From Spirochaetaceae bacterium (lineage in GTDB: Bacteria; Spirochaetota; Spirochaetia; DSM-2461): DNA of 64,000 nt. This document shows, piece by piece, positions 8,056-64,000 of this stretch; position 1 is the stretch's first letter, and each line of letters opens with the position of its first letter. The notes below the pieces were generated by a model. That model saw nothing but the letters and a program-made list of their open reading frames with translations, made no database searches and was not told where the DNA came from. The stretch spans positions 128,001 to 192,000 of the forward strand of contig JAOPTT010000013.1 of assembly GCA_051531975.1 (NCBI GenBank). The letters are read 5' to 3'. A program made the position numbers and the translations under genes.

Positions 8056-8056
8056 C

Positions 8057-17979: not shown

Positions 17980-18062
17980 TAGATAAAGAATATGTTATTA
18001 AATCTTTTTTGAATAGAGGAAATCTCACTATTGATATAATATAGTTATAGTAAGGAGTTTAT

Positions 18063-47810: not shown

Positions 47811-48410
47811 ATGAGATACTTTTTAATTATAATTTATATTTTTATATCACTTCATATATGCTTCTCTTTAGATTTAGGAGGAGCTTTTTCTATCGATTAT
47901 TATAATAATCCAATTGAAGATAGTGCGCCTTCTCCAATTCAGGTAAGACCCATATTATTCTATAATCTTGATATCAGTATTTTTAATCTAAGAACTGGTT
48001 TAGGTATTGTTGAGGGAAACTATGAGGTTAGCTCCGACGATTTACCCGTTTTTAATGATATGTATAGTGGTTTTTATACTCTGGAATTTGATATCTTTGC
48101 TTACCCAGGCATTTCTTTTAATATTACAGAGTCCATTTCACTAGGTATTGCTGCAGGTGGAGGAGTTAGACTCCCATTGCTTACAAAAGTTGATGACGAT
48201 TTAGATGATGATGTAAATACTGATGATGCCTTTGATTGGTTCTATTCAGATCTAAATTTCTTGTTTTGGGGTGTTCAGTTATATACTAAAATTAAGCTAC
48301 CTTTAAGTGAAACTACAAGATTTTTTGGAGCAATTTATTATAAAGATTTTATTACTAGAGATGATCAATGGATAATAGGTGCCACAACTGGAATGTTGTG
48401 GCAATTTTGA
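47811..48410 (+). CDS. Putative small outer-membrane beta-barrel protein
   Basis: Signal peptide, amphipathic beta-strands, C-terminal GMLWQF ending in Phe. Confidence 0.55.
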   Translation: MRYFLIIIYIFISLHICFSLDLGGAFSIDYYNNPIEDSAPSPIQVRPILFYNLDISIFNLRTGLGIVEGNYEVSSDDLPVFNDMYSGFYTLEFDIFAYPGISFNITESISLGIAAGGGVRLPLLTKVDDDLDDDVNTDDAFDWFYSDLNFLFWGVQLYTKIKLPLSETTRFFGAIYYKDFITRDDQWIIGATTGMLWQF

Positions 48411-48412
48411 TA

Positions 48413-49648
48413 TTATATACTGTTTTTACCCTGTAATTTTTTATCAGGATCTAACATTACGTTAATTAGTATAATTGTCGCAGAATTAATAATAGTTGAT
48501 ACTGCAGCTAGAACTGGGAAAACCGGTGAAAGTATAATATAACTATCTTCTATATTTCCATAAGCATATAGAGAGCACAATAGATACAGTGAGGCCACAC
48601 TTGATCCTACAGCTTTTGTAGGTAGACAAAATGATATCAAAAATGAAAATATACTAACCCATAAAACTTGGGATGCTGTAATCTCAAGACTTGAATATGA
48701 TTTTAAAATAACGATGAATGTAATAACTGAAACTAAAGCAGTACCACTTTTAGAAAATAGTGAAAGAAAAGGAATATTGAAACCTGACACTTCTCTTTTT
48801 ATCTTAAAATTTAGTTTTTGGGATGCAATTAAAGTTGTTGATGTAAAGAAATAATCTCCAGTGATAACAGCAACAATTAATGTTGGCATTTGTGACAAAA
48901 TATATTTAAATGAATTTCTTTTACCACATGTATAATAAAATATTATTGGATAAACAATAAATACAATAAAAACAGTTAATGAAATTAGGGTTATAATTAA
49001 TGGTAAAAATATAACAATATTAAAAATATCTCTAATAAGATTAATATAAGTCGCTGTTAGGATCGTAACCCATATAAAAGATATCTTCAAAAAGTATTCG
49101 TTGATTTTAAAGAATATTCTTGATAATGAGTCTACTAGATTAAAAGTAGGTTCAACCTCTTCCCTACTACTTTTAGTTAGAAAAAAACCTAATACTAAAG
49201 CCAAGATAAAGAAAGGTACAAATTGGTTTTCCACAGAAGTAAATTCCCCAACAAAAACAGAGAATATATTACTTGGAAATGATTGTTCAATCAATTGTTT
49301 GAAACTTGGAACATTTATTTCGTAGATACCGTCAATAACAACTGGTATCGGACCTGAAGGGAATAAGAATGATACTAATATCCCGATAATTACTAATAAA
49401 AGTGAAAATGCAGCAACTAAACCTATTGCTTTAGCTGTTGTAACTGCTAATTGTCTGTTTCTTTGTAATTGACACACAGATACTATAAGTGAAAAGAATA
49501 ATAATGGAAGAACAATATAACGTCCCATTGATAATATCGTTGTTGATATTTGTGTAATTGTAGTCAATATCAGACTGTTTACTGGTAGTAAAAGAGCTAT
49601 TAGTGCCCCCACAATTAGACCTGCTAATACTTGCAGTAATGTTTTCAT
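48413..49648 (-). CDS. Dicarboxylate/amino acid:cation symporter family protein (divergent)
   Basis: YIVLPLLFFSL, FPSNIF, polytopic; C-terminal substrate motifs divergent. Confidence 0.75.
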   Translation of the reverse strand: MKTLLQVLAGLIVGALIALLLPVNSLILTTITQISTTILSMGRYIVLPLLFFSLIVSVCQLQRNRQLAVTTAKAIGLVAAFSLLLVIIGILVSFLFPSGPIPVVIDGIYEINVPSFKQLIEQSFPSNIFSVFVGEFTSVENQFVPFFILALVLGFFLTKSSREEVEPTFNLVDSLSRIFFKINEYFLKISFIWVTILTATYINLIRDIFNIVIFLPLIITLISLTVFIVFIVYPIIFYYTCGKRNSFKYILSQMPTLIVAVITGDYFFTSTTLIASQKLNFKIKREVSGFNIPFLSLFSKSGTALVSVITFIVILKSYSSLEITASQVLWVSIFSFLISFCLPTKAVGSSVASLYLLCSLYAYGNIEDSYIILSPVFPVLAAVSTIINSATIILINVMLDPDKKLQGKNSI

Positions 49649-49727
49649 TAAATTCTCCTTTTAAAAACATAGATTATCATATTATTTTTTTATTTGATAT
49701 AGTATATTTTTACTATAAGGGGTCGAT

Positions 49728-51368
49728 ATGAAAATTGCAGCAGGACAGATAAACTCTAAAATTGGAGACTTTAAAAACAACGCTTTAAAAATATTACAAG
49801 AGTCTAATAGAGCTCTAGAATCAGGTGCGACCCTTGTTGTTTTTCCTGAAATGGCAATCTCTGGATATCCACCTATGGATTTAGTAAATTATGATTCCTT
49901 TGTTAATAAGAACCTAGGCGCACTGAAATGGCTAATTACACACTTAGCTAAAGATATTGCTGTATGTGTAGGTTATGTTGACTTCAATAAAAAAAGCCAA
50001 GGTAAAAGATTAGTAAACCGAATCTCAGTTATTCTGAATAATGAAATAATATATACACAGGATAAAACCTTATTACCAACATATGATGTTTTTGATGAGG
50101 CAAGGTATTTTGAACCAGGTCAAAAGCGTTCCTTTTTTATGTTAAATGGTCTAAAAATTGGTGTTGCTATCTGCGAAGATATCTGGTGGAATCATGGGGA
50201 ATTTAGCGATAAAGAGTATCCTGAGAATCCAGTAGACGATATTTTATCACATAATCCAGATGTCGTGATTATTCCTTCAGCATCCCCATTTTATTCAGGG
50301 AAAACAGCTACAAGGTTAGATATTGTGCAATCAATATGTAAAAAAGGAAATTGCCCAAGTTTATATGTAAATATGGTTGGTGCAAATGATAACCTTATTT
50401 TTGATGGGAATTCTTTTGGCGTAAATAAGAGTGGGGATGTTATTGGTGTTGGAACTGGGTTTGAAGAGGATCTGCTATTAATAGATGTTTTTTCAGATAA
50501 TAAAGTTTCTGAGCCACTTTATAGTAAATATGAAGAGATTGAATGTGCTTTAGCGTTAGGTATAAAAGAGTATATATATAAATGTGGATTATCTAAGGTT
50601 ATTATTGGATCATCTGGTGGTATTGATTCTGCATTGGTTGCATGTCTTGCTGTTAAAGCTCTTGGAAAAGATAACGTAAAAACATTTGCTATGCCGTCTA
50701 GGTACTCTTCTGATGGTAGTAAATCAGATGCAAAACAGTTAGCTATAAACTTAGGAGTTAGCTATGATGAACTAGCGATAGAGCCAGTTTTTGAATCATT
50801 TTTAAATACATTAGAACCACATTTTAAGGGTACAGAGATGAATGTCGCTGAAGAGAATCTTCAGGCAAGAATAAGAGGAACGCTTTTAATGGCTTACTCG
50901 AATAAGTTTGGCGGTATGGTTTTAACCACAGGTAATAAATCGGAACTTGCAACAGGATATTGCACTCTCTATGGGGACATGGCAGGTGGTCTCTCAGTTA
51001 TTGGGGACTTGTTTAAAACTGAAGTTTTTGAGCTATGTTATCATATTAATAAAACTGAGGAGATTATACCTCAGAATATATTGGATAAACCTCCAAGTGC
51101 CGAGTTACGTCCAGATCAGAAAGATGAAGACTCTCTACCTCCCTATGATATTTTAGATGGTATTTTAGACCTATATGTAGTTCATAACAAATCCGCAGAA
51201 GATATTATTCTCCAGGATTATGATCGTGAAACTGTAGAGTTTGTTTTAAAGCTAACTGCAAGAGTAGAATTTAAAAGAAACCAGACTGCACCAGTTTTAA
51301 AAGTTTCTAAGAAGGCATTTGGTAATGGAAGACGAATCCCTATTGCTAGATCTCTTACTGAAGTTTAA
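49728..51368 (+). CDS. nadE: Glutamine-dependent NAD+ synthetase
   Basis: Nitrilase domain (FPEM, K..LPTYDVFDE, ICEDIW); SGGIDS, ENLQARIRG, TGNKSE, PPSAELRPDQ. Confidence 0.97.
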   Translation: MKIAAGQINSKIGDFKNNALKILQESNRALESGATLVVFPEMAISGYPPMDLVNYDSFVNKNLGALKWLITHLAKDIAVCVGYVDFNKKSQGKRLVNRISVILNNEIIYTQDKTLLPTYDVFDEARYFEPGQKRSFFMLNGLKIGVAICEDIWWNHGEFSDKEYPENPVDDILSHNPDVVIIPSASPFYSGKTATRLDIVQSICKKGNCPSLYVNMVGANDNLIFDGNSFGVNKSGDVIGVGTGFEEDLLLIDVFSDNKVSEPLYSKYEEIECALALGIKEYIYKCGLSKVIIGSSGGIDSALVACLAVKALGKDNVKTFAMPSRYSSDGSKSDAKQLAINLGVSYDELAIEPVFESFLNTLEPHFKGTEMNVAEENLQARIRGTLLMAYSNKFGGMVLTTGNKSELATGYCTLYGDMAGGLSVIGDLFKTEVFELCYHINKTEEIIPQNILDKPPSAELRPDQKDEDSLPPYDILDGILDLYVVHNKSAEDIILQDYDRETVEFVLKLTARVEFKRNQTAPVLKVSKKAFGNGRRIPIARSLTEV

Positions 51369-51374
51369 AAGTCG

Positions 51375-51403
51375 AAGTCATCTTTTATATTAATAGATGA
51401 CTT
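51375..51403. terminator. Probable bidirectional terminator between convergent nadE and phnA-like genes
   Basis: Inverted repeat AAGTCATCT...AGATGACTT. Confidence 0.6.
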
Positions 51404-51420
51404 AAACTTTTCTAATTTAC

Positions 51421-51996
51421 TTATTTAGATTTTTTAACAAACTTTGTAAGGATTACAATTTTTTGGCCATTCACTCGGCCTTCAATATGTTCTGCATTAT
51501 ACGGATCTAGAGATATTCTTCTTACAGCAGTTCCTCTTTTCGCAATAAAACTGACACCCTTAACATCTAAATCTTTTATTAGTGTTACAGTATCTCCTGG
51601 TTGTAATAGAACTCCATTACAATCCATATGTTTAAGTTCACTCTCAGAGCTTTCTTCAGATAAACCAGATTCTGCCCAAGTTAATATATCATCTTCTAGG
51701 TACATCATATCTAACAGGTCTTTTGCCCAACCCTCATTTTCTAGAGCTTTTAACATTCGCCATGAAACTACCTGAACTGAAGATACAGGGCTCCACATTG
51801 AGTCGTTTAAACAACGCCAATGGTTAATATCTATACTATTAGAGTCTGTTAATTGTAAGTTACAAGTTTCGCAAGTAACTATTATATTATCTATCGATGT
51901 ATCGTCTTTTGGAGTAACAATAAAACGTTTTAACTCTTTTTCACTTCCACATAACTCACACTTTGATTCACTTCTAATTAATAATTCCTGTTCCAT
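51421..51996 (-). CDS. PhnA/YjdM-domain protein with Zn ribbon
   Basis: CELC...CETC, HWRCLNDSMWS, DCNGVLLQPGDTVTLIKDLDVKG. Confidence 0.88.
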   Translation of the reverse strand: MEQELLIRSESKCELCGSEKELKRFIVTPKDDTSIDNIIVTCETCNLQLTDSNSIDINHWRCLNDSMWSPVSSVQVVSWRMLKALENEGWAKDLLDMMYLEDDILTWAESGLSEESSESELKHMDCNGVLLQPGDTVTLIKDLDVKGVSFIAKRGTAVRRISLDPYNAEHIEGRVNGQKIVILTKFVKKSK

Positions 51997-52198
51997 TTAC
52001 CTATCCTAAAGTTTGATAATGGAATTTAACATATTAAAATGATGTATACATCTGTTAATTTACTTAATTGAAATAAAAAAAAGTACTTTCTTAATCTTTT
52101 TTATGGATATAGCCTATAAAAACAATAATAATAAATTTAGGAGTAAGCCGTGTTATGTAATCAAAGAAGATGTATGTTTTATTTAACAAAGACTCGGT

Positions 52199-55003
52199 TT
52201 GATAAATATGAAAATATCTGAAGATTTACTCTATATAAGAAAAGGTGAAGGTTCTCTTGTATTTCGCTTTTTCCTACAATATTTTCTTATTGGAATTCCC
52301 CGGCTTTTTACTTTTACAGGGGCAGGAGCACTATTCCTGCAATATTTTAAATCTGATTATCTTCCAATAGTTCAAATGGCTACTGCTCTAATTCTTCCTT
52401 TTATAGGTATATTACTTTTTTTGTTTCAAAAAAGAGGGCAAACAAAACGTCTCTTTTCTATAATGTATTTCCTTCTAATAGTTGCATTAGTTATATTTAG
52501 AATAATCTTTCATTATAACAAGGAAAGTCCATACCCATATGCTTTTTTATTAATATGGGCAAATGTTGAATATGCAATAACAGAAATTATTTTTTGGATA
52601 AGTGCAAATCGTATGTTTAATATCCGCCAGGCAAAAAGACTGTTTGGGGTTATTGCTGCCGGGGAAGTTCTTTCTATTATTATTATGGGTTCACTTCTCT
52701 CTCAGATAGTTAAATTCATAAGTCCACAAAATTTAATTTTATTGTCTGCATTAAGTCTATTTTTTGCATTGTTAAATCATCAAAAGATACACTTTCCAAA
52801 ACCAATAATAGAGACTCCTAAACGATTTATCAAAAAGACAGAATATCCCAAATACTATATTTTATTACTGTTTTTAATTGTGTTATTGGAAAATAATACA
52901 CATATTATTGGTGAAAACATCTTTTTTAGAGCTATAGAGGAGAAGTTTGTAAGTACTACATCGATTATAGTTTTTATGGGTGCGTTTATGGCAGTATTAA
53001 ATATTTTGAAGTTTATATTCCAACTGTTTTTAACAAATCGTTTTAATGAAAAATTTGGAGTTCTTGGTGCACTGTTAAGTCCTATTCTATTTTTGATTCC
53101 AGTTTCAATTGGAATTGCCATTTTTTCACTTAATGCACAATATATCCAGGTCGTTATTCTTTTTGCACTGTTATTACGTATTTTTATATCTCTAAGTATT
53201 GGTTCATTTTATGGCCCTGTATTTTTTACTCTTTTTCAACCATTAAGGGATAATATCCGGGAGAAAATCCAAAATATAGCTGATTCTGTTATAGGGCAAG
53301 GTGCAGGTTTTTTAGGAGGAGGCGCAATACTTTTTCTAGGTAGCATTATAGGCATATCATTTCTAAATTTATCTGTTATTTTAATATTAAATCTATGTTT
53401 GTGGTTATTTGTAATCATTATTATATTTAAGGAATTTAATAAACAGCTGGTCTTTCATGTTCTCCCTGTTTATAAGTCGAAAAACAGGATTATTGACTCA
53501 AAAACTAATATAGAAACAGATGAATTATTAAGAGAGAAAGAACAAGACATAGAAATATGGATTAATTCTTATATATTGGGAGATGTTGAAAATAATCTTA
53601 GAAATCTACTTCAATTATCAGATTTAAAAAAGAAAACCCTAGACATATTAGGGCAATATCTTACTAATGAAATATTATTATGTAATACGTTTGATTTTAT
53701 ATTATCTAAACTTATTCAAAGACCTGAAACCTTTCTTATAGATAATCTTAGAGATGAAAAGGTTATTTCACAAAGAAGGATTTTACTCGTAGTATCAATA
53801 TTAGAGAAAAATGTAAGAATATTTGATATTAACAGGCAATTGAATTCTGAAAATAGTAAAACAGCATCATTTGCTATAGAGCTTATTGAACAATGGATCA
53901 CTGGTAAATATAAAAGAAAAATAATTGAGATTGTAGAACCACCATATCAAGGCTTTCAGAATAAACAGCTAATTAAGTTTTTAAGAAGCTGTGAAAATAG
54001 GGATGACTTCTCTCATTTATTGTCTTATTTTTCAAGTTTTTACAAAAGTGATGCTGGTAAATGGATGTTATATTGTTTTAAGAACTATTTAATTGACGAT
54101 AAAGATAAGTTACCATGGGATTTTGAGAAAACAAAAATACTAAAAAAGAATGAAGTTTTTGGTAAAAGTTCCTGTTTTGATCTTTCAAAAGCAGCAGACT
54201 ATTTTAATGAAGAGTCCTATGTTGCAAAAGAATTAATCATCAAAAAAGGCGAAATTGGTGATACTATGTATATCATCATAGAGGGGACTGTTAAAGTTTT
54301 TGTTGGGAATATTGAATATGCATTATTGGCAGAAGGAAGCTTTTTTGGAGAAGGTTCCGCTCTAAGTCCAGAACCTAGATCCGCAAGTATAAGTGCGGTA
54401 AGTGATGTAAAACTACTTTCAATTAACAAAAAATATCTATATTCATTATTAGAAGATTATCCACAGATCTTGTTATCTTTAATGCTTGTTTTATGTAGTT
54501 GGATTCGTACAAATGTTAAAAAGATAGACTTTAAGGAAGTTGTTAAGGTCAATGATTATAATATTAGTTATTCTGAATATTCACCTTCGGTTTTACTTTC
54601 TAAGATGAGATCTATCCCTGAATTAAAAAATATTAAAGATGATTTATTTAAAAGCTTAATATATAATAGTAGCATTCTTAATATTAAATCAGGTCAAAGA
54701 TTGTACAATAGAGGTGATTCTGAGCAAACTCCCTTTTTTTTAATTGAAGGTGAAATGAAATTTTTTTTAAACACTGAACTTGAAGCAAGATTACAAACAA
54801 ATGGTTTTTTTGGATTATTATCCACAATAGATAATGGTGAATATATAGAACATGCTGAGGCAGTTAAAGATTGTACTATTTTAGTAATTAAGCCGGAGAT
54901 CTTTGGTTTTCATCTTTCTAGTAATTATTATTTTGGGCGTTATTGTCTCACTAAAGTTATGAATAAATTACGATTCATTAATACAATCATAAGGAATAAG
55001 TGA
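52199..55003 (+). CDS. Npt/TLC-like MFS transporter fused to a helical linker and two cNMP-binding domains (start TTG 52199 or ATG 52208)
   Basis: IRKGE N-terminus, FWISANRMFNIRQAKRLFGVI (TLC-like signature), about 12 TMs; cNMP1 KKGEIGDTMYIIIEG...FFGE...PRSAS; cNMP2 degenerate. Confidence 0.8.
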   Translation: MINMKISEDLLYIRKGEGSLVFRFFLQYFLIGIPRLFTFTGAGALFLQYFKSDYLPIVQMATALILPFIGILLFLFQKRGQTKRLFSIMYFLLIVALVIFRIIFHYNKESPYPYAFLLIWANVEYAITEIIFWISANRMFNIRQAKRLFGVIAAGEVLSIIIMGSLLSQIVKFISPQNLILLSALSLFFALLNHQKIHFPKPIIETPKRFIKKTEYPKYYILLLFLIVLLENNTHIIGENIFFRAIEEKFVSTTSIIVFMGAFMAVLNILKFIFQLFLTNRFNEKFGVLGALLSPILFLIPVSIGIAIFSLNAQYIQVVILFALLLRIFISLSIGSFYGPVFFTLFQPLRDNIREKIQNIADSVIGQGAGFLGGGAILFLGSIIGISFLNLSVILILNLCLWLFVIIIIFKEFNKQLVFHVLPVYKSKNRIIDSKTNIETDELLREKEQDIEIWINSYILGDVENNLRNLLQLSDLKKKTLDILGQYLTNEILLCNTFDFILSKLIQRPETFLIDNLRDEKVISQRRILLVVSILEKNVRIFDINRQLNSENSKTASFAIELIEQWITGKYKRKIIEIVEPPYQGFQNKQLIKFLRSCENRDDFSHLLSYFSSFYKSDAGKWMLYCFKNYLIDDKDKLPWDFEKTKILKKNEVFGKSSCFDLSKAADYFNEESYVAKELIIKKGEIGDTMYIIIEGTVKVFVGNIEYALLAEGSFFGEGSALSPEPRSASISAVSDVKLLSINKKYLYSLLEDYPQILLSLMLVLCSWIRTNVKKIDFKEVVKVNDYNISYSEYSPSVLLSKMRSIPELKNIKDDLFKSLIYNSSILNIKSGQRLYNRGDSEQTPFFLIEGEMKFFLNTELEARLQTNGFFGLLSTIDNGEYIEHAEAVKDCTILVIKPEIFGFHLSSNYYFGRYCLTKVMNKLRFINTIIRNK

Positions 55004-56046
55004 TGAAGAAAATACAAGTTAATCGTTTAGGCATATTGTCTAATCTAAAAAAAATACAGACATTGTGTAAAAATAATGGATGTGAACTTGTTCCTGTTAC
55101 AAAACTTGTACATTCATATCAAGAGATGTTATCGGAGCTTATAAATGGTGATATAAAAATGATTGCTGAAGTTAACTTGGATTCAATTAAACAGATTGAA
55201 CTACCTGTAAAAAAGATGTTATTAAAAACATCTCCATCTGCTATTAGAGATATCCTATTAAATTGTGATGTTGCTTTAGTTTCTGAATTAGATGTTCTAA
55301 GAGAAATTAACAAATATGCAAAATCAAGATATCTGGATATTATTGTTCCCATAGAACTTGGCGATTTAAGAGAGGGTATTTATCCAAATGAAGTTGTCGA
55401 TTTTTTTAGAGAAGCTTTAAAGTTAGTTAACCTTAACATAGTTGGCTTTTCAGTTAATTTTGGATGCCTCGCTGGAAAATTACCAGATGATGAGTCTTTA
55501 CTAGAGATTCAAGAGATTAAAAAGAACTTAATAGAAGAACTAAATTATACTCCTCAAGTTGTTTCTTTAGGTGGAACAGTTATTATTGATATGTTAAAAG
55601 AGGGTAAATTAAAAGGTATTGCTAATCAGGTTAGAATCGGAGAAGCCATCTACTTCGGATATAATACTTCTGGTGGAGCCTATATTGAAGGTTTAGAGCA
55701 GAATAACTTTATATTTCAGGCAGAAATAATAGAAGTAAAAGAGAAAGAAGTTTTAAATAAAGGTAAAATGGGTCTCAATGCATTTGGGGAATCTTTTAAG
55801 TCAAATAAAAGTGGAATTAGGAAAAGAGCAGTTCTCAACTTTGGTTCCTTAACAGTACCTCCATATGGAATAATACCAGTGGATTCTTCAGTTCAACTTG
55901 AAGGTATGACCCATGATCTTTCTGTATTCGATATTACCAATTCAACATATCCATATAAACCAGGATCAATAATGGAGTTTCGTTTGAATTATTCTGGGGC
56001 GGCTCAAGCATTTTTAAATAAGCATATTGCTATTATAATAAATTAA
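55000..56046 (+). CDS. PLP-dependent amino-acid racemase, ornithine/lysine racemase-like (alanine racemase fold)
   Basis: PVTK PLP-Lys, ELGDLREG, NFGC, SLGGT, QVRIGEA, THDL; GTG start overlaps the upstream stop. Confidence 0.85.
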   Translation: MMKKIQVNRLGILSNLKKIQTLCKNNGCELVPVTKLVHSYQEMLSELINGDIKMIAEVNLDSIKQIELPVKKMLLKTSPSAIRDILLNCDVALVSELDVLREINKYAKSRYLDIIVPIELGDLREGIYPNEVVDFFREALKLVNLNIVGFSVNFGCLAGKLPDDESLLEIQEIKKNLIEELNYTPQVVSLGGTVIIDMLKEGKLKGIANQVRIGEAIYFGYNTSGGAYIEGLEQNNFIFQAEIIEVKEKEVLNKGKMGLNAFGESFKSNKSGIRKRAVLNFGSLTVPPYGIIPVDSSVQLEGMTHDLSVFDITNSTYPYKPGSIMEFRLNYSGAAQAFLNKHIAIIIN

Positions 56047-56107
56047 AAGTAGTAGTTTTATATAAATATAAGCTAAAATAAGTATAATATTCCTTGGGGG
56101 TTTAACC

Positions 56108-57391
56108 ATGACAAAGAAGACAGTATTCATGATAGTTGCTATATCATTAGCTCTATTTTCATGCCAGAACAAAACAAAAGAAGATAATATCGAAGAAACA
56201 CGTGTTTACCATAAAGCTGAAGCTACAGATCTATTAAATAGTGGAGCTGTAGCAGATACTGCAGATTATACTGCTTTCCTTAAATCAAATAAGGAAAAAT
56301 TTAAAATAGCAGTATTCCAAAGTGGTAAATATTTCTCATATACTGATGTATTTGAAGGTATTCTTCAGGGAATGGTTACTTTAGGGTGGATAAATGATGT
56401 ACCACCTCTTCTGAAAGACTACTCATACGACTCTTATGAAGACGGTAAAACGATATATAATATAATTCAGGAATTAAACAAAACTGATTATAGTGATTAT
56501 GTAGAAATTTCTACTGAACTGTTTTTTGATCTAAATTTTACAGATGATAATGTAAATACTCCTGAATTTGAAAAAATGACTGAAGCTGATTCAAATATAG
56601 ATCTAATTATATGTCTTGGAACCCAGATGAGTAAAATTCTTTCAGATTTTACAAATCTTAAGATTCCTGTTTTAGTTGACTCCATTTCAGATCCTGTAGG
56701 TTCTGAAATATTAAATAGTATTGATGATTCAGGGCGAGATTTCTTAACTGGAATTGTTGACCCAGAGCAGGACTTAAGACAACTTAAACTTTTTCATAGT
56801 GTTATTCAATTTAAAACTCTTGGTATACTTTACGAAGATACTGATATTGGAAGATCCTATGGTGCTGTTGATGATGTTTATTCAGTTGCTAATGAAAATG
56901 GATTTAAAGTTATTGCAAATAATAATGTTCTTCCAGACCCTATAGATGATGATGATGATGATGCATGGGAAGATTGTGAAGCCCAATATATCGTAGCCTT
57001 AGAAGAACTTTGCCAAAGTTTATCAGAATATGATCGTAAAGATGTTGGGATCTATTTAGCGGTTCAAAGTGGTCTATCAGAGTATAGTCTTGAAGGTATT
57101 GTCGAAGTATTAAATAAATATAAAATTGCATCCTTTGTTATGGAAGGAAAAGGCTTTGTTGAAGAAGGAGTTCTATTAGGAGAATCTGATAGTAACTTAT
57201 TATCTAAAGGAATCTTTAATAGCAAAAAAATTGTTAATATTTTTAGAGGAACAAAGCCTCGGGAATTAAATCAGAAATATGAACATGTCCCTCATATAGC
57301 AATTAACTTAGATACTGCAAATCATATTGGTTATGATGTAACTATTGATATTTTATCTAGTGCCGATCAGATATATAAAAAGGAGCAGTAG
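56108..57391 (+). CDS. ABC-type substrate-binding lipoprotein (ABC_sub_bind-like), orphan
   Basis: Lipobox LFSC; SISDPVGS, FKTLGILY, GTKPREL, IAINLDTANHIG...LSSADQI. Confidence 0.8.
   Translation: MTKKTVFMIVAISLALFSCQNKTKEDNIEETRVYHKAEATDLLNSGAVADTADYTAFLKSNKEKFKIAVFQSGKYFSYTDVFEGILQGMVTLGWINDVPPLLKDYSYDSYEDGKTIYNIIQELNKTDYSDYVEISTELFFDLNFTDDNVNTPEFEKMTEADSNIDLIICLGTQMSKILSDFTNLKIPVLVDSISDPVGSEILNSIDDSGRDFLTGIVDPEQDLRQLKLFHSVIQFKTLGILYEDTDIGRSYGAVDDVYSVANENGFKVIANNNVLPDPIDDDDDDAWEDCEAQYIVALEELCQSLSEYDRKDVGIYLAVQSGLSEYSLEGIVEVLNKYKIASFVMEGKGFVEEGVLLGESDSNLLSKGIFNSKKIVNIFRGTKPRELNQKYEHVPHIAINLDTANHIGYDVTIDILSSADQIYKKEQ
56945..56962 (+). repeat. (GAT)6 in-frame microsatellite encoding Asp6
   Basis: gatgatgatgatgatgat read directly. 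Confidence 0.9.
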
Positions 57392-57392
57392 T

Positions 57393-59840
57393 ATGAGAAA
57401 CAATGTAAAACTTTTAGCAACTGTTACTATATCGCTAATAATAATTGCTCAGCTTTTAAATACAGCACTAACACTTTCTGGTTTTGAAGAAACATATACT
57501 CAGTCATTTCAAACTAAGTATGAAAACCTATCTCAGACATTTAAATCAAGTGTTGAAAGAGATGTAAACCTTGGTAAAAATATATACCTCTTAAATAATG
57601 TGGCACCCACAATTTTTAACGAGATCAAATCAGACGATTTATCTATAAAAAATCTGTACATATTAGATCAAAATAGACTTATTAGTTTTTCTTCAGATAC
57701 TGAAGCTGTAGAGATGATACTTGGGGATGAAAGTTTTCCTGTTTACAAAGATAATCCTTCAACCTATGATTTATTAAAAACCAATGTTGTAGACTATAAA
57801 AAATCAAAGTTCTTTATTAGTCCTGTATATTACAATAATGTATCTTTTCGGGGATATACAGTTATCGAATTTGAGAAAAATATTATAAACCAATATATCT
57901 TTCAACTTTTTATAGGAAGTCTACCAGTATCTGGTCTTATTCTTGTTGGCGCTTTAATATTATTAATTATATTCCTTAGTTTAGCACGAAATACTTTTAG
58001 AGAAGATTCAACATACAAAAAAAGAACATTTGTAAGCTCTTTAATAATTCTTTCTACTATTTTGATTGTTCAGTTAACATATACTTTTTACAATCAGTCT
58101 TATTATAGGACCTCTTATCTAAAAACGTATAACGATACTGTAACAAACCTTGAAAGTTATGTAGAGGATGAGTTTGAATTTGTATTGGGTCTTGGTCTTC
58201 CATTAGAAAGCATTAAAGATGCAGAGTTTGAGCTTCAGAGAAATTTTCTATCATATGAGATGGTAGATCAGATGTTAATTACTGATAAAGATGGAAATAT
58301 CTTTTATTCAGTATACGGTGATATTGCATATTCATCTTTTGTCCATGGAAGTGATCATGAAGGTGCAGGAAATATAAAACTAATATCAGACGAATTTAAT
58401 AGACTTGTATCTTTAGAGGTAGATGGTGAATTAAAAGGTTATTTACAAATAAAGTTAGATTCCAAAGCAGTAAATAAAGCACTGTTTGATATTCTTTTGG
58501 ATGCTTTAACTATTTTAGTTGTAATCTTTGTATTTACTTATGAATTGATTAGGTTATTCCTCATTTCAATGCCAGATAAAAAAGATAAAGTTGAGCACAA
58601 GGAAGTTACAGAACAGAAAAGTTTACAAGTTATTCGAATATCATCTTTTCTATTTTTCTTTGCAGCTTTAATTCCAATATCATTTTTACCTGATTTTATA
58701 AAACAAATATATGCTAATGATTCCATTAATATTTTTAATCTAGGACGGGATACGATTATCAGTTTACCGATTTCTGCATACATGTTAGGTGTCGCTGTAT
58801 TTATCCCTATAGTTGGTTTTTTATCTACTAAAGTAAAACTTAAGAAAATATTTCAGATTTCAATCACTCTTTTTATTGTTGGAACACTGTTAACAGCATT
58901 TTCAAGTAATATTATTATGTTAATAGTCTCAAGGTTTATTGCAGGTGCAGGTTATGGAGGTGTTATCATAAATGCTACATCCCTAGTTATGTCTAGTACT
59001 ACAAGTAAAAATAGAGCTTTAGGTTTTGGTTTTTGGGCAGCTGGTTTTGCTAGTGCAAGTATAACTGCTATCGCGATTGGTGGAGTTATTGTAAATAAAC
59101 TTGGATTTGAGGCAGGTTTGTTTCTTTCCATAGCCTTCTCAATAATATTTATTTTAGTTGTTCAGAAAACAGTTAAAGATTCAAAGCAAACTGTTAAAAA
59201 AGAATCAACAATGTCTGATCTGGTTATTATATTTAAAAACCCAAGCTTAGTTGCGAACTTATTATTCTCCAGTATTCCTTTTTCTTTAGCATATATTGGT
59301 CTGTTTCAATATGTCTTCCCTTTATACATGAGTGATAAAGGTATTTCACACAGTAATATAGGTCGTGTATTAACTGTTTACGGTTTAATAAGCTTATTAA
59401 CACCATTAATCTCCAAAATTGCTGACAAAACTAAAAAAGAGAAAAACCTAATCATGATTGGTAATACTATAACTGGTTTGGCTCTGATTTCTTTTTATGT
59501 TTTAAATAAATATTTTGTAGATCTTCCTGCAATATTAATACTTATTCCAGCATTAATTGGTATGGGTTTTGGTGGTTCTATAATTGATGCAGTTGAGGAA
59601 GTTTTTATCACATCGACACCAGAAGCACAGGATATAGGTGAAACAAGGTTATTAAGTCTCTATACTACTTATGACAAAATGATTTCGGTAGTTGTACCAA
59701 TATTAGCAGGAGTTCTTGTTTCTGTATTTGGTTATTATACCAGTATCGGAATGATTGGACTGTTTACATTTTTAGGTGTATTTGTCTTTGCAATAATGAG
59801 CAGAAATTTTAAAAAAAATACCGGAGAAGTTAATGCCTAA
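57393..59840 (+). CDS. MFS transporter with two N-terminal periplasmic sensor-like domains
   Basis: ATG 57393 with SD AGGAG; TM-domain-2TM-domain-TM, then a 12-TM MFS (SRFIAGAGYG). Confidence 0.8.
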   Translation: MRNNVKLLATVTISLIIIAQLLNTALTLSGFEETYTQSFQTKYENLSQTFKSSVERDVNLGKNIYLLNNVAPTIFNEIKSDDLSIKNLYILDQNRLISFSSDTEAVEMILGDESFPVYKDNPSTYDLLKTNVVDYKKSKFFISPVYYNNVSFRGYTVIEFEKNIINQYIFQLFIGSLPVSGLILVGALILLIIFLSLARNTFREDSTYKKRTFVSSLIILSTILIVQLTYTFYNQSYYRTSYLKTYNDTVTNLESYVEDEFEFVLGLGLPLESIKDAEFELQRNFLSYEMVDQMLITDKDGNIFYSVYGDIAYSSFVHGSDHEGAGNIKLISDEFNRLVSLEVDGELKGYLQIKLDSKAVNKALFDILLDALTILVVIFVFTYELIRLFLISMPDKKDKVEHKEVTEQKSLQVIRISSFLFFFAALIPISFLPDFIKQIYANDSINIFNLGRDTIISLPISAYMLGVAVFIPIVGFLSTKVKLKKIFQISITLFIVGTLLTAFSSNIIMLIVSRFIAGAGYGGVIINATSLVMSSTTSKNRALGFGFWAAGFASASITAIAIGGVIVNKLGFEAGLFLSIAFSIIFILVVQKTVKDSKQTVKKESTMSDLVIIFKNPSLVANLLFSSIPFSLAYIGLFQYVFPLYMSDKGISHSNIGRVLTVYGLISLLTPLISKIADKTKKEKNLIMIGNTITGLALISFYVLNKYFVDLPAILILIPALIGMGFGGSIIDAVEEVFITSTPEAQDIGETRLLSLYTTYDKMISVVVPILAGVLVSVFGYYTSIGMIGLFTFLGVFVFAIMSRNFKKNTGEVNA

Positions 59841-60936
59841 AAAAAAGTTATTATATATATGTGGTGGAGATGCTATAGAGCATATTCATTCGGTAAGAGC
59901 AATGCTTTTTCTTGCATCAGAAAGTAATACAGAAAAATATGACTTACAGTTCTTATATTTAGATGAAAAGGGAAAAATCTCAGGAAAACACAAAACAAGA
60001 GATTATTTTGTAAATCGAATAAATGAGTGGTCTGAGACATGGAATGAAAAACCTAGTGACGATTTCAGACAATTACTTTTTGATGGTACTGAATATTTAG
60101 GTGATGATGATGGTATACAAAATCTATCAAATCTATTCCAAGATAATTCTCCTGATGTTGCGTTTCCTATATTTCATGGGCAGCAAGGAGAAGATGGTCT
60201 ATTCCAGGGGTTACTTGATATATTAAAGATTCCATATATCGGTTCAGGTGTTAGTGGCTCAGTTATTGGTAACGATAAAGACTTTAACTCCAGGCTATGT
60301 GCTTCCTATGGCATTAAAGTTCCAGCTTATCGCACTATTACAAAATATGACTGGAATGATGATCAATTAGGTTCTATCAAAAAAATTGAAACAGCAATAA
60401 CCTATCCAATTTTTGTTAAACCTTGTTGTTTAGGTTCTTCTATGGGTATATCTAAGGTATATAAAAAAGAAGAATTAATAGAAGCTGTAAGTAAAAGTTT
60501 TACTTATGGTGATAAACTACTCTTAGAAGAACATCAGGATGGCAGAGAAATTGGAATTGGGATAATAGGACATGATGAGGTTAATTTTAGTGTCCCTGTA
60601 GAATTTTTCTCAGTAAATGACTTTTTTGATTATGATGCAAAATATGGAGAAAAAGCTCTTCCTGTAGAAATTCCAGCAAATATTTCTGATGAAATACTAA
60701 ATAAATTAAAAGAAAATGCACACAAAGTCTATAGAGCATTAGGCTTGTCTGGAATGGCTCGATTAGACTTTTTTCTTCATGATGGGGAGTTAGTTTATAA
60801 TGAGTGTAATACTGTTCCTGGATTTGGAGTTCAAAGTGTGTTTAATCAAATGTGGAAAGAAACAGGATTAACAACAGCTCAATTCATTGATCAATTAGTT
60901 TTGTTTTCAGAAGAAAAACATAATGTACAAATATAA
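59833..60936 (+). CDS. D-Ala-D-Ala ligase-family ATP-grasp enzyme
   Basis: GGxxxEH, FPIFHGQQGEDG, FVKP...GSSMG, FFDYDAKY, ARLDFF, NECNTVPGF. Confidence 0.9.
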   Translation: MPKKKLLYICGGDAIEHIHSVRAMLFLASESNTEKYDLQFLYLDEKGKISGKHKTRDYFVNRINEWSETWNEKPSDDFRQLLFDGTEYLGDDDGIQNLSNLFQDNSPDVAFPIFHGQQGEDGLFQGLLDILKIPYIGSGVSGSVIGNDKDFNSRLCASYGIKVPAYRTITKYDWNDDQLGSIKKIETAITYPIFVKPCCLGSSMGISKVYKKEELIEAVSKSFTYGDKLLLEEHQDGREIGIGIIGHDEVNFSVPVEFFSVNDFFDYDAKYGEKALPVEIPANISDEILNKLKENAHKVYRALGLSGMARLDFFLHDGELVYNECNTVPGFGVQSVFNQMWKETGLTTAQFIDQLVLFSEEKHNVQI

Positions 60937-60978
60937 AGTACATATATTAAAAGAGTAACAATATTTAAGGAGTTTGAT

Positions 60979-62994
60979 ATGACTAAAAACAGCTTGAAAA
61001 GTAGACTTAGAGGGGCCTTTCTTTTAATTACGATACTCTCTATAAGTTTAACTATATTATTTTCTCTTGTTTACTTTTATATTGCAGTTCGAAATGAAAC
61101 TATAAAAACAATGGAAACTAAGATAAATATCGCTCAGGAGCTTATTTATGAAGGGAAGAAAGAAAATGTAGATTCATTTACTAGAACTCTTTCCTCAAAT
61201 AACTTATTAAAAGTTACTGTAGATCTAGATATTCGAAATAAAATAAATGAATATTTAATTGATGTAATTAATACTGAAAAAAAATATCATATCACAGTAT
61301 TTGACTCCGACTTTAATAAAATGGCTGTTGTTGGTCTGGGGGGTAGTGTCCTCGCGGAAAATCCTGAGATCTCTCAGTTAAAATTAAACCCATTTGCAGT
61401 TGCAGCCTTAAAGGGTGATTCATTAACATCCACTGAGATGTTATTTACATCAACTGGACAAAGATTATTATCTATTACATCTGCGTATCCTGTTGAAAGA
61501 AATGGAGTTGCTGGTGGAATATTGGTTCGTTACATTTTAAACGATAATTATGAAATTGTTGATAAAATAAAAGAAGAATTAGAAGTGGATGCACAAATAT
61601 TTATAGGCTCCAATTCTATTAGTTCAACCACCGAGTCAGTTAATAGTGATCTGATTCTTACCGGTTTAACTAGGATTGAGAACTTTGAGGATTATGATAA
61701 CTTTGCAATATCAAAACTCTGGTTTGGAAAACAATTTGGGCAATTTGTAGCATTATCAAACCCTAATGGTCAGTCCATTGGTGTTTTAGGTATTAGTATA
61801 TCATCTGATAAATATATGAAGACTTTTTTAAACGCACTATTCTTTTATTTTTTGATTTTGATAGCACTTTTTGGTTTTGGGTTGTTATTTATCATTTCTA
61901 TTTCAAATAGTATTATTCATCCTATAAATGGTTTATTAGATGGAGTAAATAAAATTACCGAAGGTGATTTAAGTCATGAGATAAAAATAAGTTTTATGGA
62001 AGAAATAGGGCGGCTATCAAAAGCGTTTAACGAAATGCGTGAAACATTAAAAGAAAAAATTGGTACCATTCAGGATATGAATTCAAGTCTTGAAGGAACT
62101 ATTAAAAAGAGAACAGAGACTATTGAAACCCTGTTAAATACTATGAGACGTTATCTACCTTCTCAGCTATATAATGCGATGTCAGACAAGGAGTTTAACG
62201 GAGATACACGTTTTCATTATCGTAAAAAACTTACAGTATTCTTCTCTGATATTGTTAGCTTCACTTCCACAACAGAAAAACTTGAACCAGAAGACTTATC
62301 AGAACTTCTTAATCAATATTTAGATAATATGTCTAAAATTGCTGCGAAGTGGGGAGGTACCATCGATAAGTTTATAGGTGATGCTATAATGGTATTTTTT
62401 GGTGATCCTGAATTTACTAATGATCGAGATCATGCCCTAAGAGCTGTTCGAATGAGTATGGAAATGATTGTCTGCATGGATGAATTAAGAGATGTATGGA
62501 AAAATTTAGGGGTAGAGAAACCTCTTCATATAAGAATGGGAATTAATACGGGTTATTGTACTGTTGGTAACTTTGGTAGTGAGGATCGAATGGATTATAC
62601 CATAATTGGTGGAAACGTTAATCTTGCCTCTCGATTTGAAACAGCTGCAGCACCAGATACTATTTTAATAAGCCATGAAACATATGCTTTAATAAAAGAT
62701 GAAATAAATTGTGAGAAAATTTCAGAATTGACACTAAAAGGTTTTGATCAAGCTATAAAAGCATATAGAGTTCTAGGTGAAAAAACTCAAAAAACAAAAA
62801 TGAAATTACTTTCCATTAATGAAAATGGGCTGAAGATAAAGAATTTTAATTTTAATCAAAAAGAACTTGAACAAGATGATCGAGTAGAACTAATTCGAAA
62901 TCTTAATCTAGCTCTTAATTATGCTAAAGGAGAAATCTCTAGTGTATATGATGAGAATAACGATGTGTGGAAATTTGTAAGAAATACTAAATAG
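60979..62994 (+). CDS. Membrane class III adenylate cyclase (periplasmic Cache-like domain, HAMP)
   Basis: 2 TMs, HAMP (EEIGRLSKAFNEM), FSDIVSFT, DKFIGDA (Lys), DYTIIGGNVNLASR (Asp/Asn/Arg), i.e. adenine-specifying residues. Confidence 0.93.
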   Translation: MTKNSLKSRLRGAFLLITILSISLTILFSLVYFYIAVRNETIKTMETKINIAQELIYEGKKENVDSFTRTLSSNNLLKVTVDLDIRNKINEYLIDVINTEKKYHITVFDSDFNKMAVVGLGGSVLAENPEISQLKLNPFAVAALKGDSLTSTEMLFTSTGQRLLSITSAYPVERNGVAGGILVRYILNDNYEIVDKIKEELEVDAQIFIGSNSISSTTESVNSDLILTGLTRIENFEDYDNFAISKLWFGKQFGQFVALSNPNGQSIGVLGISISSDKYMKTFLNALFFYFLILIALFGFGLLFIISISNSIIHPINGLLDGVNKITEGDLSHEIKISFMEEIGRLSKAFNEMRETLKEKIGTIQDMNSSLEGTIKKRTETIETLLNTMRRYLPSQLYNAMSDKEFNGDTRFHYRKKLTVFFSDIVSFTSTTEKLEPEDLSELLNQYLDNMSKIAAKWGGTIDKFIGDAIMVFFGDPEFTNDRDHALRAVRMSMEMIVCMDELRDVWKNLGVEKPLHIRMGINTGYCTVGNFGSEDRMDYTIIGGNVNLASRFETAAAPDTILISHETYALIKDEINCEKISELTLKGFDQAIKAYRVLGEKTQKTKMKLLSINENGLKIKNFNFNQKELEQDDRVELIRNLNLALNYAKGEISSVYDENNDVWKFVRNTK

Positions 62995-63005
62995 AACTAA
63001 TCCTT

Positions 63006-63024
63006 AATATTAGAGTCTAATATT
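63006..63024. promoter_or_regulatory. Palindrome downstream of the cyclase and upstream of the GGDEF promoter (terminator or operator)
   Basis: AATATTAGA-G-TCTAATATT. Confidence 0.45.
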
Positions 63025-63045
63025 GCTATTAAAAAGCATATAAAC

Positions 63046-63074
63046 TTGACGTAAATATTAAGTTCTCTTATCAT
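63046..63074 (+). promoter_or_regulatory. Sigma-70-like promoter of the GAF-GGDEF gene
   Basis: TTGACG-17 nt-TATCAT. Confidence 0.65.
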
Positions 63075-63110
63075 TTAGTTACTCTAGAGTTAACTGTATA
63101 AAGGAATTTA

Positions 63111-64000
63111 ATGGATACTACTAAACAAAACAGACTGTTTGCTAATATAGGAAAGTTAATTACATCCTCTTTAGATTCTACGTCCATTTTAGAAAGGATC
63201 ATGAGCGAGGTTCAACTCTATTTTAATCCTCTACATTGGAGCCTTTTTAAGTTTGATCGGACTTCTAACTTATTATACTTTGCTATTTTTGAAGGTGCAG
63301 ATGTTGAACAGGTGAAACATGTTAAACTTAAACCTGGAGAGGGTATTGCAGGAACAGTAGTAAGCAGTGGAAAATCAATATTTGTTAAAGATGCAGCTAA
63401 AGATTCTAGATTCTCAAATAAAGTAGACCTTTTAACAGGTTTTCAAACAGAATCAATTATTGCTGTACCTATTAAAATAAACAATGAAGTTTATGGTGTT
63501 ATTGAAATTATTAACCATGAAAATCATGACCTGTTTAGCGATGAAGATCATTTTATATTACAGAGCATTGCAGATTTTGCAGCAATTGCTTTTAAAAATA
63601 ATTCAAGGTATGTGGAAGCAATAAAGAGAAGTGAGATTGATGCACTTACTGGCCTGTTTAATAAGAGTAAACTTACGGACTTAATTGAACATCATACTAA
63701 GAAAGAATATCCAACAAGGCGAGACCATGATAATGATGCTGAAATTATTATCGTATTTATTGACCTAGATGAATTTAAGAGTATTAACGATACCTATGGG
63801 CATAGTGAGGGAGATGAAGTTTTAATGAACTTAGCAATGAGACTTCGCTCTGTATTCAGAAGTGATGATCTTATTTTCAGAGTTGGCGGTGATGAGTTTC
63901 TAGTATATATTGAGATTGAGGACGCTAATGAAGCAGATTTAATAATAAACCGAATCTCAAATTTACTCTCAACCCTAACGATCTCCTCTTTAACAAAAGA
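63111..64000 (+). CDS. GAF-GGDEF diguanylate cyclase, truncated by window end (absent from ORF track)
   Basis: Manual translation from ATG 63111 (SD AAGGA): GAF (GEGIAGTV...DSRF...IIAVP), DALTGLFN, IDLDEFKSINDTYGH, RSDD I-site, GGDEF. Confidence 0.93.
   Translation, partial: MDTTKQNRLFANIGKLITSSLDSTSILERIMSEVQLYFNPLHWSLFKFDRTSNLLYFAIFEGADVEQVKHVKLKPGEGIAGTVVSSGKSIFVKDAAKDSRFSNKVDLLTGFQTESIIAVPIKINNEVYGVIEIINHENHDLFSDEDHFILQSIADFAAIAFKNNSRYVEAIKRSEIDALTGLFNKSKLTDLIEHHTKKEYPTRRDHDNDAEIIIVFIDLDEFKSINDTYGHSEGDEVLMNLAMRLRSVFRSDDLIFRVGGDEFLVYIEIEDANEADLIINRISNLLSTLTISSLTK

Follow-up and report, generated by a model that had tools for sequence, protein, structure and literature searches.

The six-gene block analysed here lies in a 64,000-nucleotide (nt) stretch of a Spirochaetaceae bacterium genome (positions 128,001 to 192,000 of contig JAOPTT010000013.1, assembly GCA_051531975.1; the whole stretch is hereafter the window), and its closest described relatives each share some of its parts. 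In LuxP/LuxQ, the autoinducer-2 receptor of Vibrio, an ABC-free binding protein is encoded with a membrane sensor of the tandem-PDC/dCache type; LuxQ senses through LuxP and its output is that of a histidine kinase. The VanC and VanG operons set the serine racemase VanT beside a D-Ala-D-Ser ligase. The staphyloferrin A system employs a racemase that gives a D-basic amino acid for a small secreted product, together with the major facilitator superfamily (MFS) exporter SfaA and the lipoprotein HtsA. TAXI-GltS constitutes a class of binding-protein-dependent secondary transporter (PMC12344293), and in TRAP, TTT and TAXI-GltS systems the gene for the binding protein strictly adjoins that of the secondary transporter, with no ABC ATPase. 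The available part of PMC13397332 describes a Salmonella operon encoding the ornithine racemase OrnR, a D-Orn/D-Lys decarboxylase and amino-acid transporter homologues, reports that OrnR prefers ornithine, and has the S. aureus homologue SfaC serve staphyloferrin A. Lastly, Major et al. 2017 (PMC5381601, likewise from the part available) described an NTT-HEAT-cNBD architecture (cNBD, cyclic-nucleotide-binding domain), doubled cNBDs included, as uncharacterised, and proposed cyclic AMP (cAMP) from an adenylate cyclase as its regulator; no NTTs were reported in Spirochaetes by that survey.

The block overlaps with each of these systems and departs from each. As with LuxP/LuxQ, an ABC-free binding protein is encoded with a tandem-PDC/dCache membrane sensor, but here the sensor's output is a class III adenylate cyclase, the binding protein is a PF04392 lipoprotein, and the set also holds an MFS permease with Cache domains (Cache-MFS); docking of the lipoprotein on the sensor is predicted by analogy. 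As in VanC/VanG operons, a racemase stands beside a second Ddl-family ligase while a housekeeping Ddl is encoded elsewhere, yet the racemase is soluble and of the OrnR type, the ligase carries Tyr216 and a hydrophobic residue 282 (DdlB numbering throughout), VanXY and VanRS are absent, and control appears to run through cAMP. An OrnR-type racemase (SfaC, PMC13397332, part available), an MFS protein and a lipoprotein binding protein are common to the block and the staphyloferrin A system, whereas the ligase of the block is an ATP-grasp Ddl rather than an NIS synthetase, its binding protein is of another family and lacks an ABC permease, and its cyclase and cyclic-nucleotide-binding transporter have no staphyloferrin counterpart. 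With the Salmonella operon, as described in the same part of that source, the block shares a Cys/Lys-type ornithine racemase encoded alongside transporters. The strict adjacency of binding-protein and secondary-transporter genes without an ABC ATPase recalls TRAP, TTT and TAXI-GltS, but the transporter is a 12-transmembrane (TM) MFS permease with four extra TM segments and two sCache domains, not DctQM, TctAB or GltS. Finally, the first protein of the block and its orthologues appear to have the NTT-HEAT-cNBD architecture, doubled cNBD included, but this gene shares one conserved cluster with a cyclase, and the TLC match of the window copy falls below the Pfam cut-off. A literature search combining Ddl, racemase, adenylate cyclase and Spirochaet* found no paper. 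The gene set recurs in many uncultured spirochaetes and is not known to have a studied counterpart.

A six-gene block conserved among Spirochaetota

The block comprises six + strand open reading frames (ORFs) at 52199-62994, co-directional and tightly packed, which we number g1 to g6 (Table 1). An earlier note on this stretch had described six genes of these families in close same-strand packing, and the ORF list together with Pfam and NCBIfam assignments bears this out. Overlaps of 4 nt (g1/g2) and 8 nt (g4/g5) and gaps of 61 nt (g2-g3) and 42 nt (g5-g6) separate or join the reading frames; g3 and g4 overlap by 47 nt if g4 begins at its TTG start, or lie 1 nt apart if it begins at the ATG at 57393. 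The window genome (G000; 5.46 Mb, 98.5% complete) contains no paralogues of g1, g3 or g4 by genome-wide search, which makes all three single-copy genes.

Table 1. Features of the block in the window, and presence of its genes among the related loci.
Feature	Position	Strand	Size and basis	Presence
Presumed promoter region: 202-nt intergenic, from the divergent PhnA/YjdM gene to g1	51997..52198	.	position only	
g1, NTT(TLC)-like membrane transporter, helical linker, two C-terminal cyclic-nucleotide-binding domains	52199..55003	+	934 aa; Pfam, TM segments, orthologues	
g2, pyridoxal phosphate (PLP) racemase, ornithine-racemase (OrnR/Orr) type	55000..56046	+	348 aa; PF01168, NF040742, residue motif	17/17 loci; internally truncated in L024
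g3, PF04392 (ABC_sub_bind) substrate-binding lipoprotein without ABC partner	56108..57391	+	427 aa; Pfam, lipobox	17/17 loci
g4, MFS permease behind two membrane-anchored sCache/PDC domains (Cache-MFS); likely start 57393	57345..59840	+	831 aa from TTG, 815 aa from ATG	16/17 loci; single miss = contig end
g5, Ddl-family ATP-grasp ligase, cluster-specific clade	59833..60936	+	367 aa; Pfam, NCBIfam, tree	12/15 loci extending beyond the MFS gene
g6, membrane adenylate cyclase, TM-dCache periplasmic domain-TM-HAMP-class III catalytic domain	60979..62994	+	671 aa; Pfam, AlphaFold2 (AF2)	13/14 loci extending far enough; ten full-length orthologues at 39-48%, others 26-30%
Paired methyltransferases				4/17 loci

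The order g1, racemase, binding protein, Cache-MFS, Ddl, adenylate cyclase is repeated, with protein identities of 25-60%, in 16 other loci of Spirochaetota, so that on co-conservation, too, the evidence came out in favour of the earlier note. A scan for the racemase clade with one genome per species gave nine Spirochaetota loci, in which tblastn showed the gene order of the window; marker searches across 401 Spirochaetota genomes located the lipoprotein in 13 genomes (12/153 genera) and the g4 N-terminal module in 17; and a metagenome scan with the binding-protein alignment added 11 loci, all of cluster types already seen. The frequencies in Table 1 refer to 17 racemase-bearing loci (numbered with the prefix L), with the window included and repeats left out, which are mutually related and hence not independent samples. 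Each locus has different genes around the block, and we therefore regard the block itself as the conserved unit. It was absent from 24 same-family genomes searched with g5, and this absence, together with the patchy spread, suggests a history of gain by transfer or frequent loss.

Could the six genes be functionally unrelated and adjacent by chance? The promoter and terminator scans described below were uninformative, and with at least 23 other class III cyclase loci in the genome a cyclase is not a rare neighbour; the order has nonetheless been kept at the above identities in 16 other loci amid unrelated flanks, the junctions overlap or are very short, and a cluster-specific Ddl clade tracks the cluster. 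We consider a chance neighbourhood barely credible. Very probably, the block works as a single functional unit that links D-amino-acid chemistry, transport by a binding protein and Cache-MFS, and cAMP.

The constant core: a lipoprotein, a Cache-bearing permease and a cyclase

The constant core of the block is a trio consisting of the PF04392 lipoprotein (g3), the MFS permease with two N-terminal sCache domains (g4) and the Cache/HAMP adenylate cyclase (g6). The binding-protein gene adjoins the Cache-MFS gene in every case among the tabulated loci, and the two are adjacent in 11 genomes, the window's included, which are all of those with a strong g4 N-terminal match among the 401 Spirochaetota genomes. 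Two more distant loci, L071 and L072, encode all three members on a single strand (Cache-MFS, PF04392 binding protein and dCache-cyclase) but neither racemase nor ligase.

The lipoprotein g3 matches PF04392 with 45.8 bits (cut-off 25.9) and is far from the TrpX equivalog of NCBIfam (49 bits, cut-off 390); its lipobox cysteine (Cys19) is invariant in 13/13 orthologues, and its nearest solved structures by PDB sequence search are 6HNI, 3LFT and 3LKV. According to the available parts of PMC6816091 and PMC10443332, three solved PF04392 proteins bind Tyr, Phe or Trp via a common grip on the amino and acid groups, and because these family members bind amino acids, an amino-acid-like ligand is expected for g3. 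No ABC permease or ATPase partner of the binding protein was found in the window flanks or beside it in the annotated related loci, and the available part of PMC10443332, on PF04392, mentions neither MFS nor cyclase. Elsewhere, L075 has PF04392 genes flanked by sCache_3-HAMP-SpoIIE phosphatases, and in L029 such a gene precedes a histidine kinase; the lipoprotein is therefore associated with membrane proteins of the Cache type generally. Two genomes from a different family have a doubled binding protein, with both PF04392 domains in one ~793-residue frame (L026:9679-12060 (-) and L027:3948-6332 (-)), which would make it a two-domain protein in tandem form.

In g4, an MFS_1 match (122 bits, residues 432-745) follows ~400 residues without a Pfam family, and the TM segments number 4+12 = 16; the ATG at 57393 agrees with orthologue N-termini. 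The AF2 model of the N-terminal 405 residues (pLDDT 80.3) resolves two modules, each arranged as TM helix-PDC fold-TM helix, for which the sensor domains of WalK/YycG, CitA, DcuS and DctB were the best Foldseek matches; as modelled, the N-terminus is a pair of TM-anchored sCache/PDC domains. An exhaustive profile search recovered 199 representatives of this module family at E<=1e-30 and 1858 at E<=1e-3 (mostly ~780-860 residues long among the best 150 listed), whereas a word-based search with the g4 N-terminus recovered the query alone. Some family members match sCache_3 Pfam models, those with source names are labelled "hypothetical protein" or "MFS transporter", and one comes from an Actinomycetota metagenome-assembled genome. 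A fusion to the binding protein, considered for the long family members P0252 and P0297, was rejected (hhalign probability 0.1), their extra length being further Cache modules or unassigned sequence. At the two enzyme-free loci the first Cache module is a separate ORF of 276-300 residues just upstream of the Cache-MFS (L071:9342-10244 (-) and L072:9843-10673 (-)), resembling a split two-module N-terminus; the distant Cache-MFS of L072 (6500-9853 (-)) bears a C-terminal DUF5939 (62 bits) and is followed by the PF04392 gene and the dCache-cyclase.

The third member, g6, matches PF00211 (101.6 bits) and HAMP (38.6 bits), and its residues 414-601 (188 residues) align with P. aeruginosa CyaB (3R5G) at 227 bits; by these similarities it is a CyaB-like class III adenylate cyclase. 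TM segments were assigned at residues 13-31 and 288-306, and the periplasmic part reaches 21.6 bits against Pfam sCache_3_3, below the cut-off of 28.8. In the AF2 model of residues 1-325 (pLDDT 85.1), this part folds as a dCache domain, for which Foldseek returned the dCache amino-acid chemoreceptors Tlp3, PctA, Mlp24 and McpB, and gave the highest target-normalised TM score (0.67-0.69) to the periplasmic domain of LuxQ. This predicted likeness in fold alone does not establish a LuxPQ-type mode of sensing. The sensors of g4 and g6 have no sequence likeness to each other (BLASTP E 0.95). Genome G000 has a large cAMP repertoire, with ~23 further class III cyclase loci detected by tblastn with g6.

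A core of this kind could also serve uptake and salvage. Here g3 and the Cache-MFS would form a binding-protein-dependent importer of an external amino acid (D-/L-ornithine, alanine or similar), the cyclase would report its availability as cAMP, the racemase would convert the imported enantiomer, and the ligase would use the D-form to make D-Ala-D-X for the wall, the L-form going instead to a lysyl-tRNA synthetase (LysRS)-like enzyme in two lineages. This fits the trio without biosynthetic genes in L071 and L072, the unfailing adjacency of the binding-protein and MFS genes (overlapping or 1 nt apart in the window), the canonical Ddl residues (below), the characterised PF04392 proteins, all of them importer components binding L-amino acids (PMC6816091, PMC10443332, available parts), and the Salmonella OrnR encoded with amino-acid transporter homologues (PMC13397332, available part). 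It leaves unexplained why a dedicated Ddl clade evolves separately alongside a housekeeping Ddl, why four loci carry two amine N-methyltransferases, and what the second, predicted cAMP-binding transporter is for; moreover, literature searches turned up no binding-protein-dependent MFS importer or pairing, and likewise no combination of a Cache domain with an MFS protein. We hold uptake and salvage to be possible, if on balance unlikely, and rank it as the main rival to the signalling loop favoured below, with wall editing of the Van kind, an osmolyte or metal shuttle and chance ranking after it.

An OrnR-type racemase and a separate clade of Ddl ligases

The racemase g2 belongs to Ala_racemase_N (PF01168, 53.5 bits), and its sole NCBIfam match is the Orr model NF040742, at 227.7 bits below the cut-off of 480. 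Its relatives form a small Spirochaet*-labelled clade at 35-71% identity, followed by named Orr proteins at ~28-34%. Across an alignment of ten clade sequences R123, N152, C155 (within an N-F-G-C motif) and R211 are invariant and K34 is nearly so. In Salmonella OrnR, Lys36 and Cys164 are catalytic, Asn161 takes the place of the usual His, and Arg129 and Arg220 bind PLP (PMC13397332, available part); g2 residues K34, R123, N152, C155 and R211 match OrnR Lys36, Arg129, Asn161, Cys164 and Arg220 by motif and spacing, not by joint alignment. Because the catalytic Lys/Cys set is conserved, we assign g2, on its sequence, as an OrnR-type racemase despite the sub-cut-off Orr score. PDB sequence searches with g2 gave no match, either with the single sequence (E<=1e-5) or with a profile (E<=0.01). 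A second Orr-like racemase, 28% identical to g2, is encoded in the same genome (contig C9:492058-493134); it immediately follows a DUF1611 gene, with a glutamate-synthase-like gene nearby, and so has partners unlike those in the cluster. In one related locus (L024:10001-10671) the racemase is present as two short ORFs that lack roughly residues 85-219 of the window protein, reflecting a decayed gene or an assembly fault.

The ligase g5 is a Ddl-family enzyme by Pfam (PF07478, 193.4 bits, cut-off 24; PF01820, 59.2 bits, cut-off 34.6) and passes the plain Ddl subfamily model NF002528 (291.6 bits, cut-off 262). A quick tree of 57 rows separates the housekeeping Ddl of G000 from a single clade (SH-aLRT 98) that holds the 11 cluster copies and three database proteins. 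Forty related genomes contained no close counterpart of g5, the best matches being 34-40% identical and thus at the level of housekeeping Ddl, and a search of 5.8 billion proteins yielded only three at 40-43% identity over full length. The earlier note would have been undermined had g5 been the genome's only ddl; contig C5 carries a second, better-scoring Ddl (PF07478, 242 bits versus 195 for g5 in the genome search) with a Mur ligase ~0.5 kb away, and contig C7 encodes a canonical alanine racemase (219 bits). One further candidate for the clade, the second Ddl of genome G401, 7.6 kb from that genome's cluster, was set aside, because the tree places it outside the clade, joined by a long branch to E. 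coli DdlB.

At the residue level, E15, H63, K97, K144, S150, E180, E187, K215, R255, D257, E270, N272 and S281 are invariant in 16/16 sequences of the cluster alignment, position 216 is Tyr in 15/16 and Phe in L031, and position 282 is Val or Leu. We take the catalytic and substrate residues of E. coli DdlB to be E15, S150, K215, Y216, R255, D257, E270, N272 and S281, and Phe at 216 with Arg at 282 to be the VanC2 pattern, Tyr216 presumably marking the D-Ala-D-Ala type.

These residues bear on wall editing of the VanC/VanG kind, in which the racemase would supply a non-canonical D-amino acid, the Ddl paralogue would make a D-Ala-D-X precursor, and the transporters and cyclase would tune production to the state of the envelope. 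A racemase with a second Ddl is indeed the core of a VanC/VanG operon, the best PDB sequence match of g5 is 4FU0 (187 bits, deposited as 'D-alanine--D-alanine ligase 7'), which we take to be VanG, and the VanG model NF000091 scores 232 bits on g5; in Acinetobacter, moreover, secreted D-lysine is reported to edit peptidoglycan (PMC7439305). That VanG score and that of the D-Ala-D-Ser model NF000207 (220 bits) nevertheless fall under the 292 bits of the plain Ddl model and far under their own cut-offs (495 and 520), and Tyr216 with Val/Leu282 differs from the presumed Phe/Arg pair of VanC2. No annotated locus contains the accessory genes VanX/VanXY, VanH or VanRS, nor do N-methyltransferases and ligase-free variants of the block fit such a role, and we judge it improbable.

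Variant loci suggest a small amine-bearing product

In two loci a class-I LysRS paralogue occupies the Ddl position (L026:8010-9668 (-) and L027:2230-3927 (-); 263-287 bits). Both genomes encode a canonical LysRS elsewhere (413-428 bits), to which the cluster paralogue is 26-27% identical; in the paralogue KMSKS reads KVSRA or KLSRA and GKDH reads GENQ, while the zinc cysteines are kept. It could be a ligase or a regulatory pseudo-enzyme. In L059 the ligase is absent altogether. A LysRS paralogue in the place of Ddl hints that the amino acid is basic and that the step activating it can be exchanged. The methyltransferases of four loci are paralogues, 58% identical to each other, whose nearest relatives (a daptide methyltransferase model, MtfA 3G2M, CcbJ, CypM and DesVI/TylM1) act on peptide N-termini and amino sugars, and this likeness to N-methyltransferases suits the tailoring of a free amine on a small product. 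Taken together, the variants suggest a small amine-bearing product made from a basic D-amino acid by an exchangeable activating enzyme.

Other insertions are confined to single lineages. In L018 a class II fructose-bisphosphate aldolase (7182-8213) lies between both methyltransferases and an FTR1 iron permease (17522-18385) lies just after the cyclase; in one further variant (L064:8956-9864 (+), equivalent to L032:10849-11760 (-)) a 303-residue ORF without a Pfam match lies between the racemase and the binding protein.

A small N-methylated product could have other uses. It might be a D-dipeptide that is kept as an inert osmolyte, or one that is secreted and recaptured in the manner of staphyloferrin A or staphylopine. 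Paralogous N-methyltransferases in tandem are reminiscent of betaine synthesis in steps, one locus has an FTR1 iron permease after the cyclase, and an OrnR-type racemase with an MFS protein and a lipoprotein reproduces the logic of sfa/hts, for which the SfaC link is given in the available part of PMC13397332. FTR1 is, however, found in that one locus only and methyltransferases in 4/17, the conserved genes include none for an NIS synthetase, an opine dehydrogenase or a metal-related function, and the cyclase, present in 13/14 loci, would have no explanation. An osmolyte or metal shuttle appears to us quite improbable.

A transporter with cyclic-nucleotide-binding domains

The first gene of the block may connect cAMP with transport. 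Pfam recognises cNMP_binding (PF00027, 94 bits) in two stretches of g1, which has nine hydrophobic segments within residues 57-409; in the window copy, the TLC match is weak (17.1 bits, cut-off 21) and there is no HEAT match. Orthologues of 897-1183 residues match TLC, HEAT_2 and cNMP models, with 36.2 bits for TLC and 38 bits for HEAT_2 in L015 and 37.5 bits for HEAT_2 in L016. The phosphate-binding cassette of the first cNBD, GE..ALSPEPRSA, is invariant in 9/9 orthologues; the second cNBD is degenerate in the window copy, with Glu and Arg missing. No transcription factor is conserved in the block across the annotated loci.

The earlier note had proposed that the lipoprotein presents its ligand to membrane sensors. 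This idea gains support from the strict adjacency of the binding-protein and Cache-MFS genes, the enzyme-free trio, the LuxQ-like fold predicted for the cyclase sensor and the invariant cassette of the first cNBD in g1.

Surroundings of the block

Upstream of the block, the flank encodes a 199-residue ORF without family assignment (47811-48410), an SDF symporter, NadE and the divergent PhnA/YjdM gene. Within 47811-63998 Pfam detected no ABC permease or ATPase, mur gene, vanX/vanH or DNA-binding regulator, in line with what the earlier note had stated for the cluster. Promoter-like matches in the presumed promoter region did not exceed the shuffled expectation (57 versus 66.5 +/- 8.3), and a terminator scan found seven terminator-like sites, every one inside a gene. 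The idea of a lysine riboswitch was dropped, since Rfam matched nothing in 51300-63300 at E<=1, or in seven related loci at the gathering score. GC content is 0.26-0.35 over 44-64 kb, with no compositional break.

Downstream, 116 nt after g6 and on the same strand, lies a diguanylate cyclase gene (GAF-GGDEF, 63111-63998) that continues beyond the window. tblastn found no match to it in nine related Spirochaetota loci, and it may be co-transcribed with the cluster in the window organism only.

A proposed signalling loop and its weighing

Our tentatively favoured reading is a loop in which the periplasmic lipoprotein binds the product of racemase and ligase and, once loaded, acts on Cache-MFS and cyclase, and in which cAMP acts on g1; we put its probability somewhat short of even. 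In this scheme the D-amino acid made by g2 would most likely be D-ornithine or another basic amino acid close to it, and g5 would join D-amino acids into a D-dipeptide, which two amine N-methyltransferases would methylate in some lineages. The compound would pass the inner membrane via one of the cluster's two transporters and be bound in the periplasm by g3 through the amino-acid-binding mode of its family. Loaded g3 would dock on the sCache domains of g4, leading to binding-protein-assisted transport or gating, and also, in the manner of LuxP with LuxQ, on the dCache domain of g6. A resulting shift in the cAMP output of g6 would be read by the first cyclic-nucleotide domain of g1, altering transport by g1, so that the cAMP relay would target a transporter and not a transcription factor. 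The analyses above show the protein families, folds and catalytic residues, the linkage and co-conservation of the genes, and the separate housekeeping ddl and alr; we infer the identity of amino acid and product, the protein contacts, the direction of both transporters and the self-made origin of the ligand.

Several observations weigh against this loop. On the chemical side, all mapped catalytic and substrate-contact residues of DdlB are unchanged in g5 and no acidic residue suited to a basic side chain was seen; the residues being canonical, the product may be plain D-Ala-D-Ala. The ligase is missing in 3/15 loci, so a dipeptide cannot be essential to the core, and since an enzyme-free trio exists, the core needs no dipeptide and its ligand may come from the environment. 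In Salmonella the partner of the racemase is a decarboxylase (PMC13397332, available part), whereas in the cluster it is a ligase, and g2 is ~30% identical to Orr-type enzymes.

On the side of transport, the best NCBIfam matches of g4 are efflux families far below their cut-offs (EmrB subfamily, 58.5 versus 230 bits; Cmx, 57 versus 400 bits), and importer families match too. By eye, we saw no clear instance in the g4 sequence of antiporter motif C (G-P..G-G), the TM5 motif that we take to mark drug:H+ antiporter families of the MFS. A binding protein, being a component known from importers, accords better with uptake than with export. As regards sensing, g1 is found in 12/17 loci and absent from five, the cyclases of L020, L059 and L062 are only 26-30% identical to g6 and differently placed, and the sensors of L071 and L072 are of the dCache_1 type; with cyclases and sensors this divergent, a single conserved interface between binding protein and cyclase is doubtful.

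Of the loop of making, exporting, sensing and cAMP signalling put forward in the earlier note, gene linkage and sensing logic are supported, but the unusual dipeptide, the direction of transport and self-signalling stay conjectural. Nothing points to an unusual dipeptide, given that g5 keeps all canonical DdlB residues, Tyr216 included, and export by the MFS permease is supported no more than import; since the block encodes two transporters, one of them, whichever it is, could serve export and the second import. The fullest form of the favoured loop would join the LuxQ-like dCache cyclase and a cAMP-gated NTT-type transporter into a circuit, free of any transcription factor, that makes, releases, senses and re-handles a dipeptide of the D-ornithine type, in some lineages N-methylated, as a signal of a quorum-like kind or of the state of the envelope. 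We regard this form as distinctly unlikely.

Significance

Were the favoured loop correct, it would give a first function to the tandem-Cache MFS, to the NTT-HEAT-cNBD transporter and to a Ddl clade outside wall synthesis. MFS permeases would join the short list of binding-protein-linked secondary transporters, and cAMP would act directly on a transporter beside its own cyclase. Uptake plus sensing, should that be what the block does, would still amount to a new transporter design. In spirochaetes, a phylum in which small-molecule signalling is poorly known, the loop, if it holds, would point to D-ornithine-type metabolites as a currency of the periplasm or the extracellular space.

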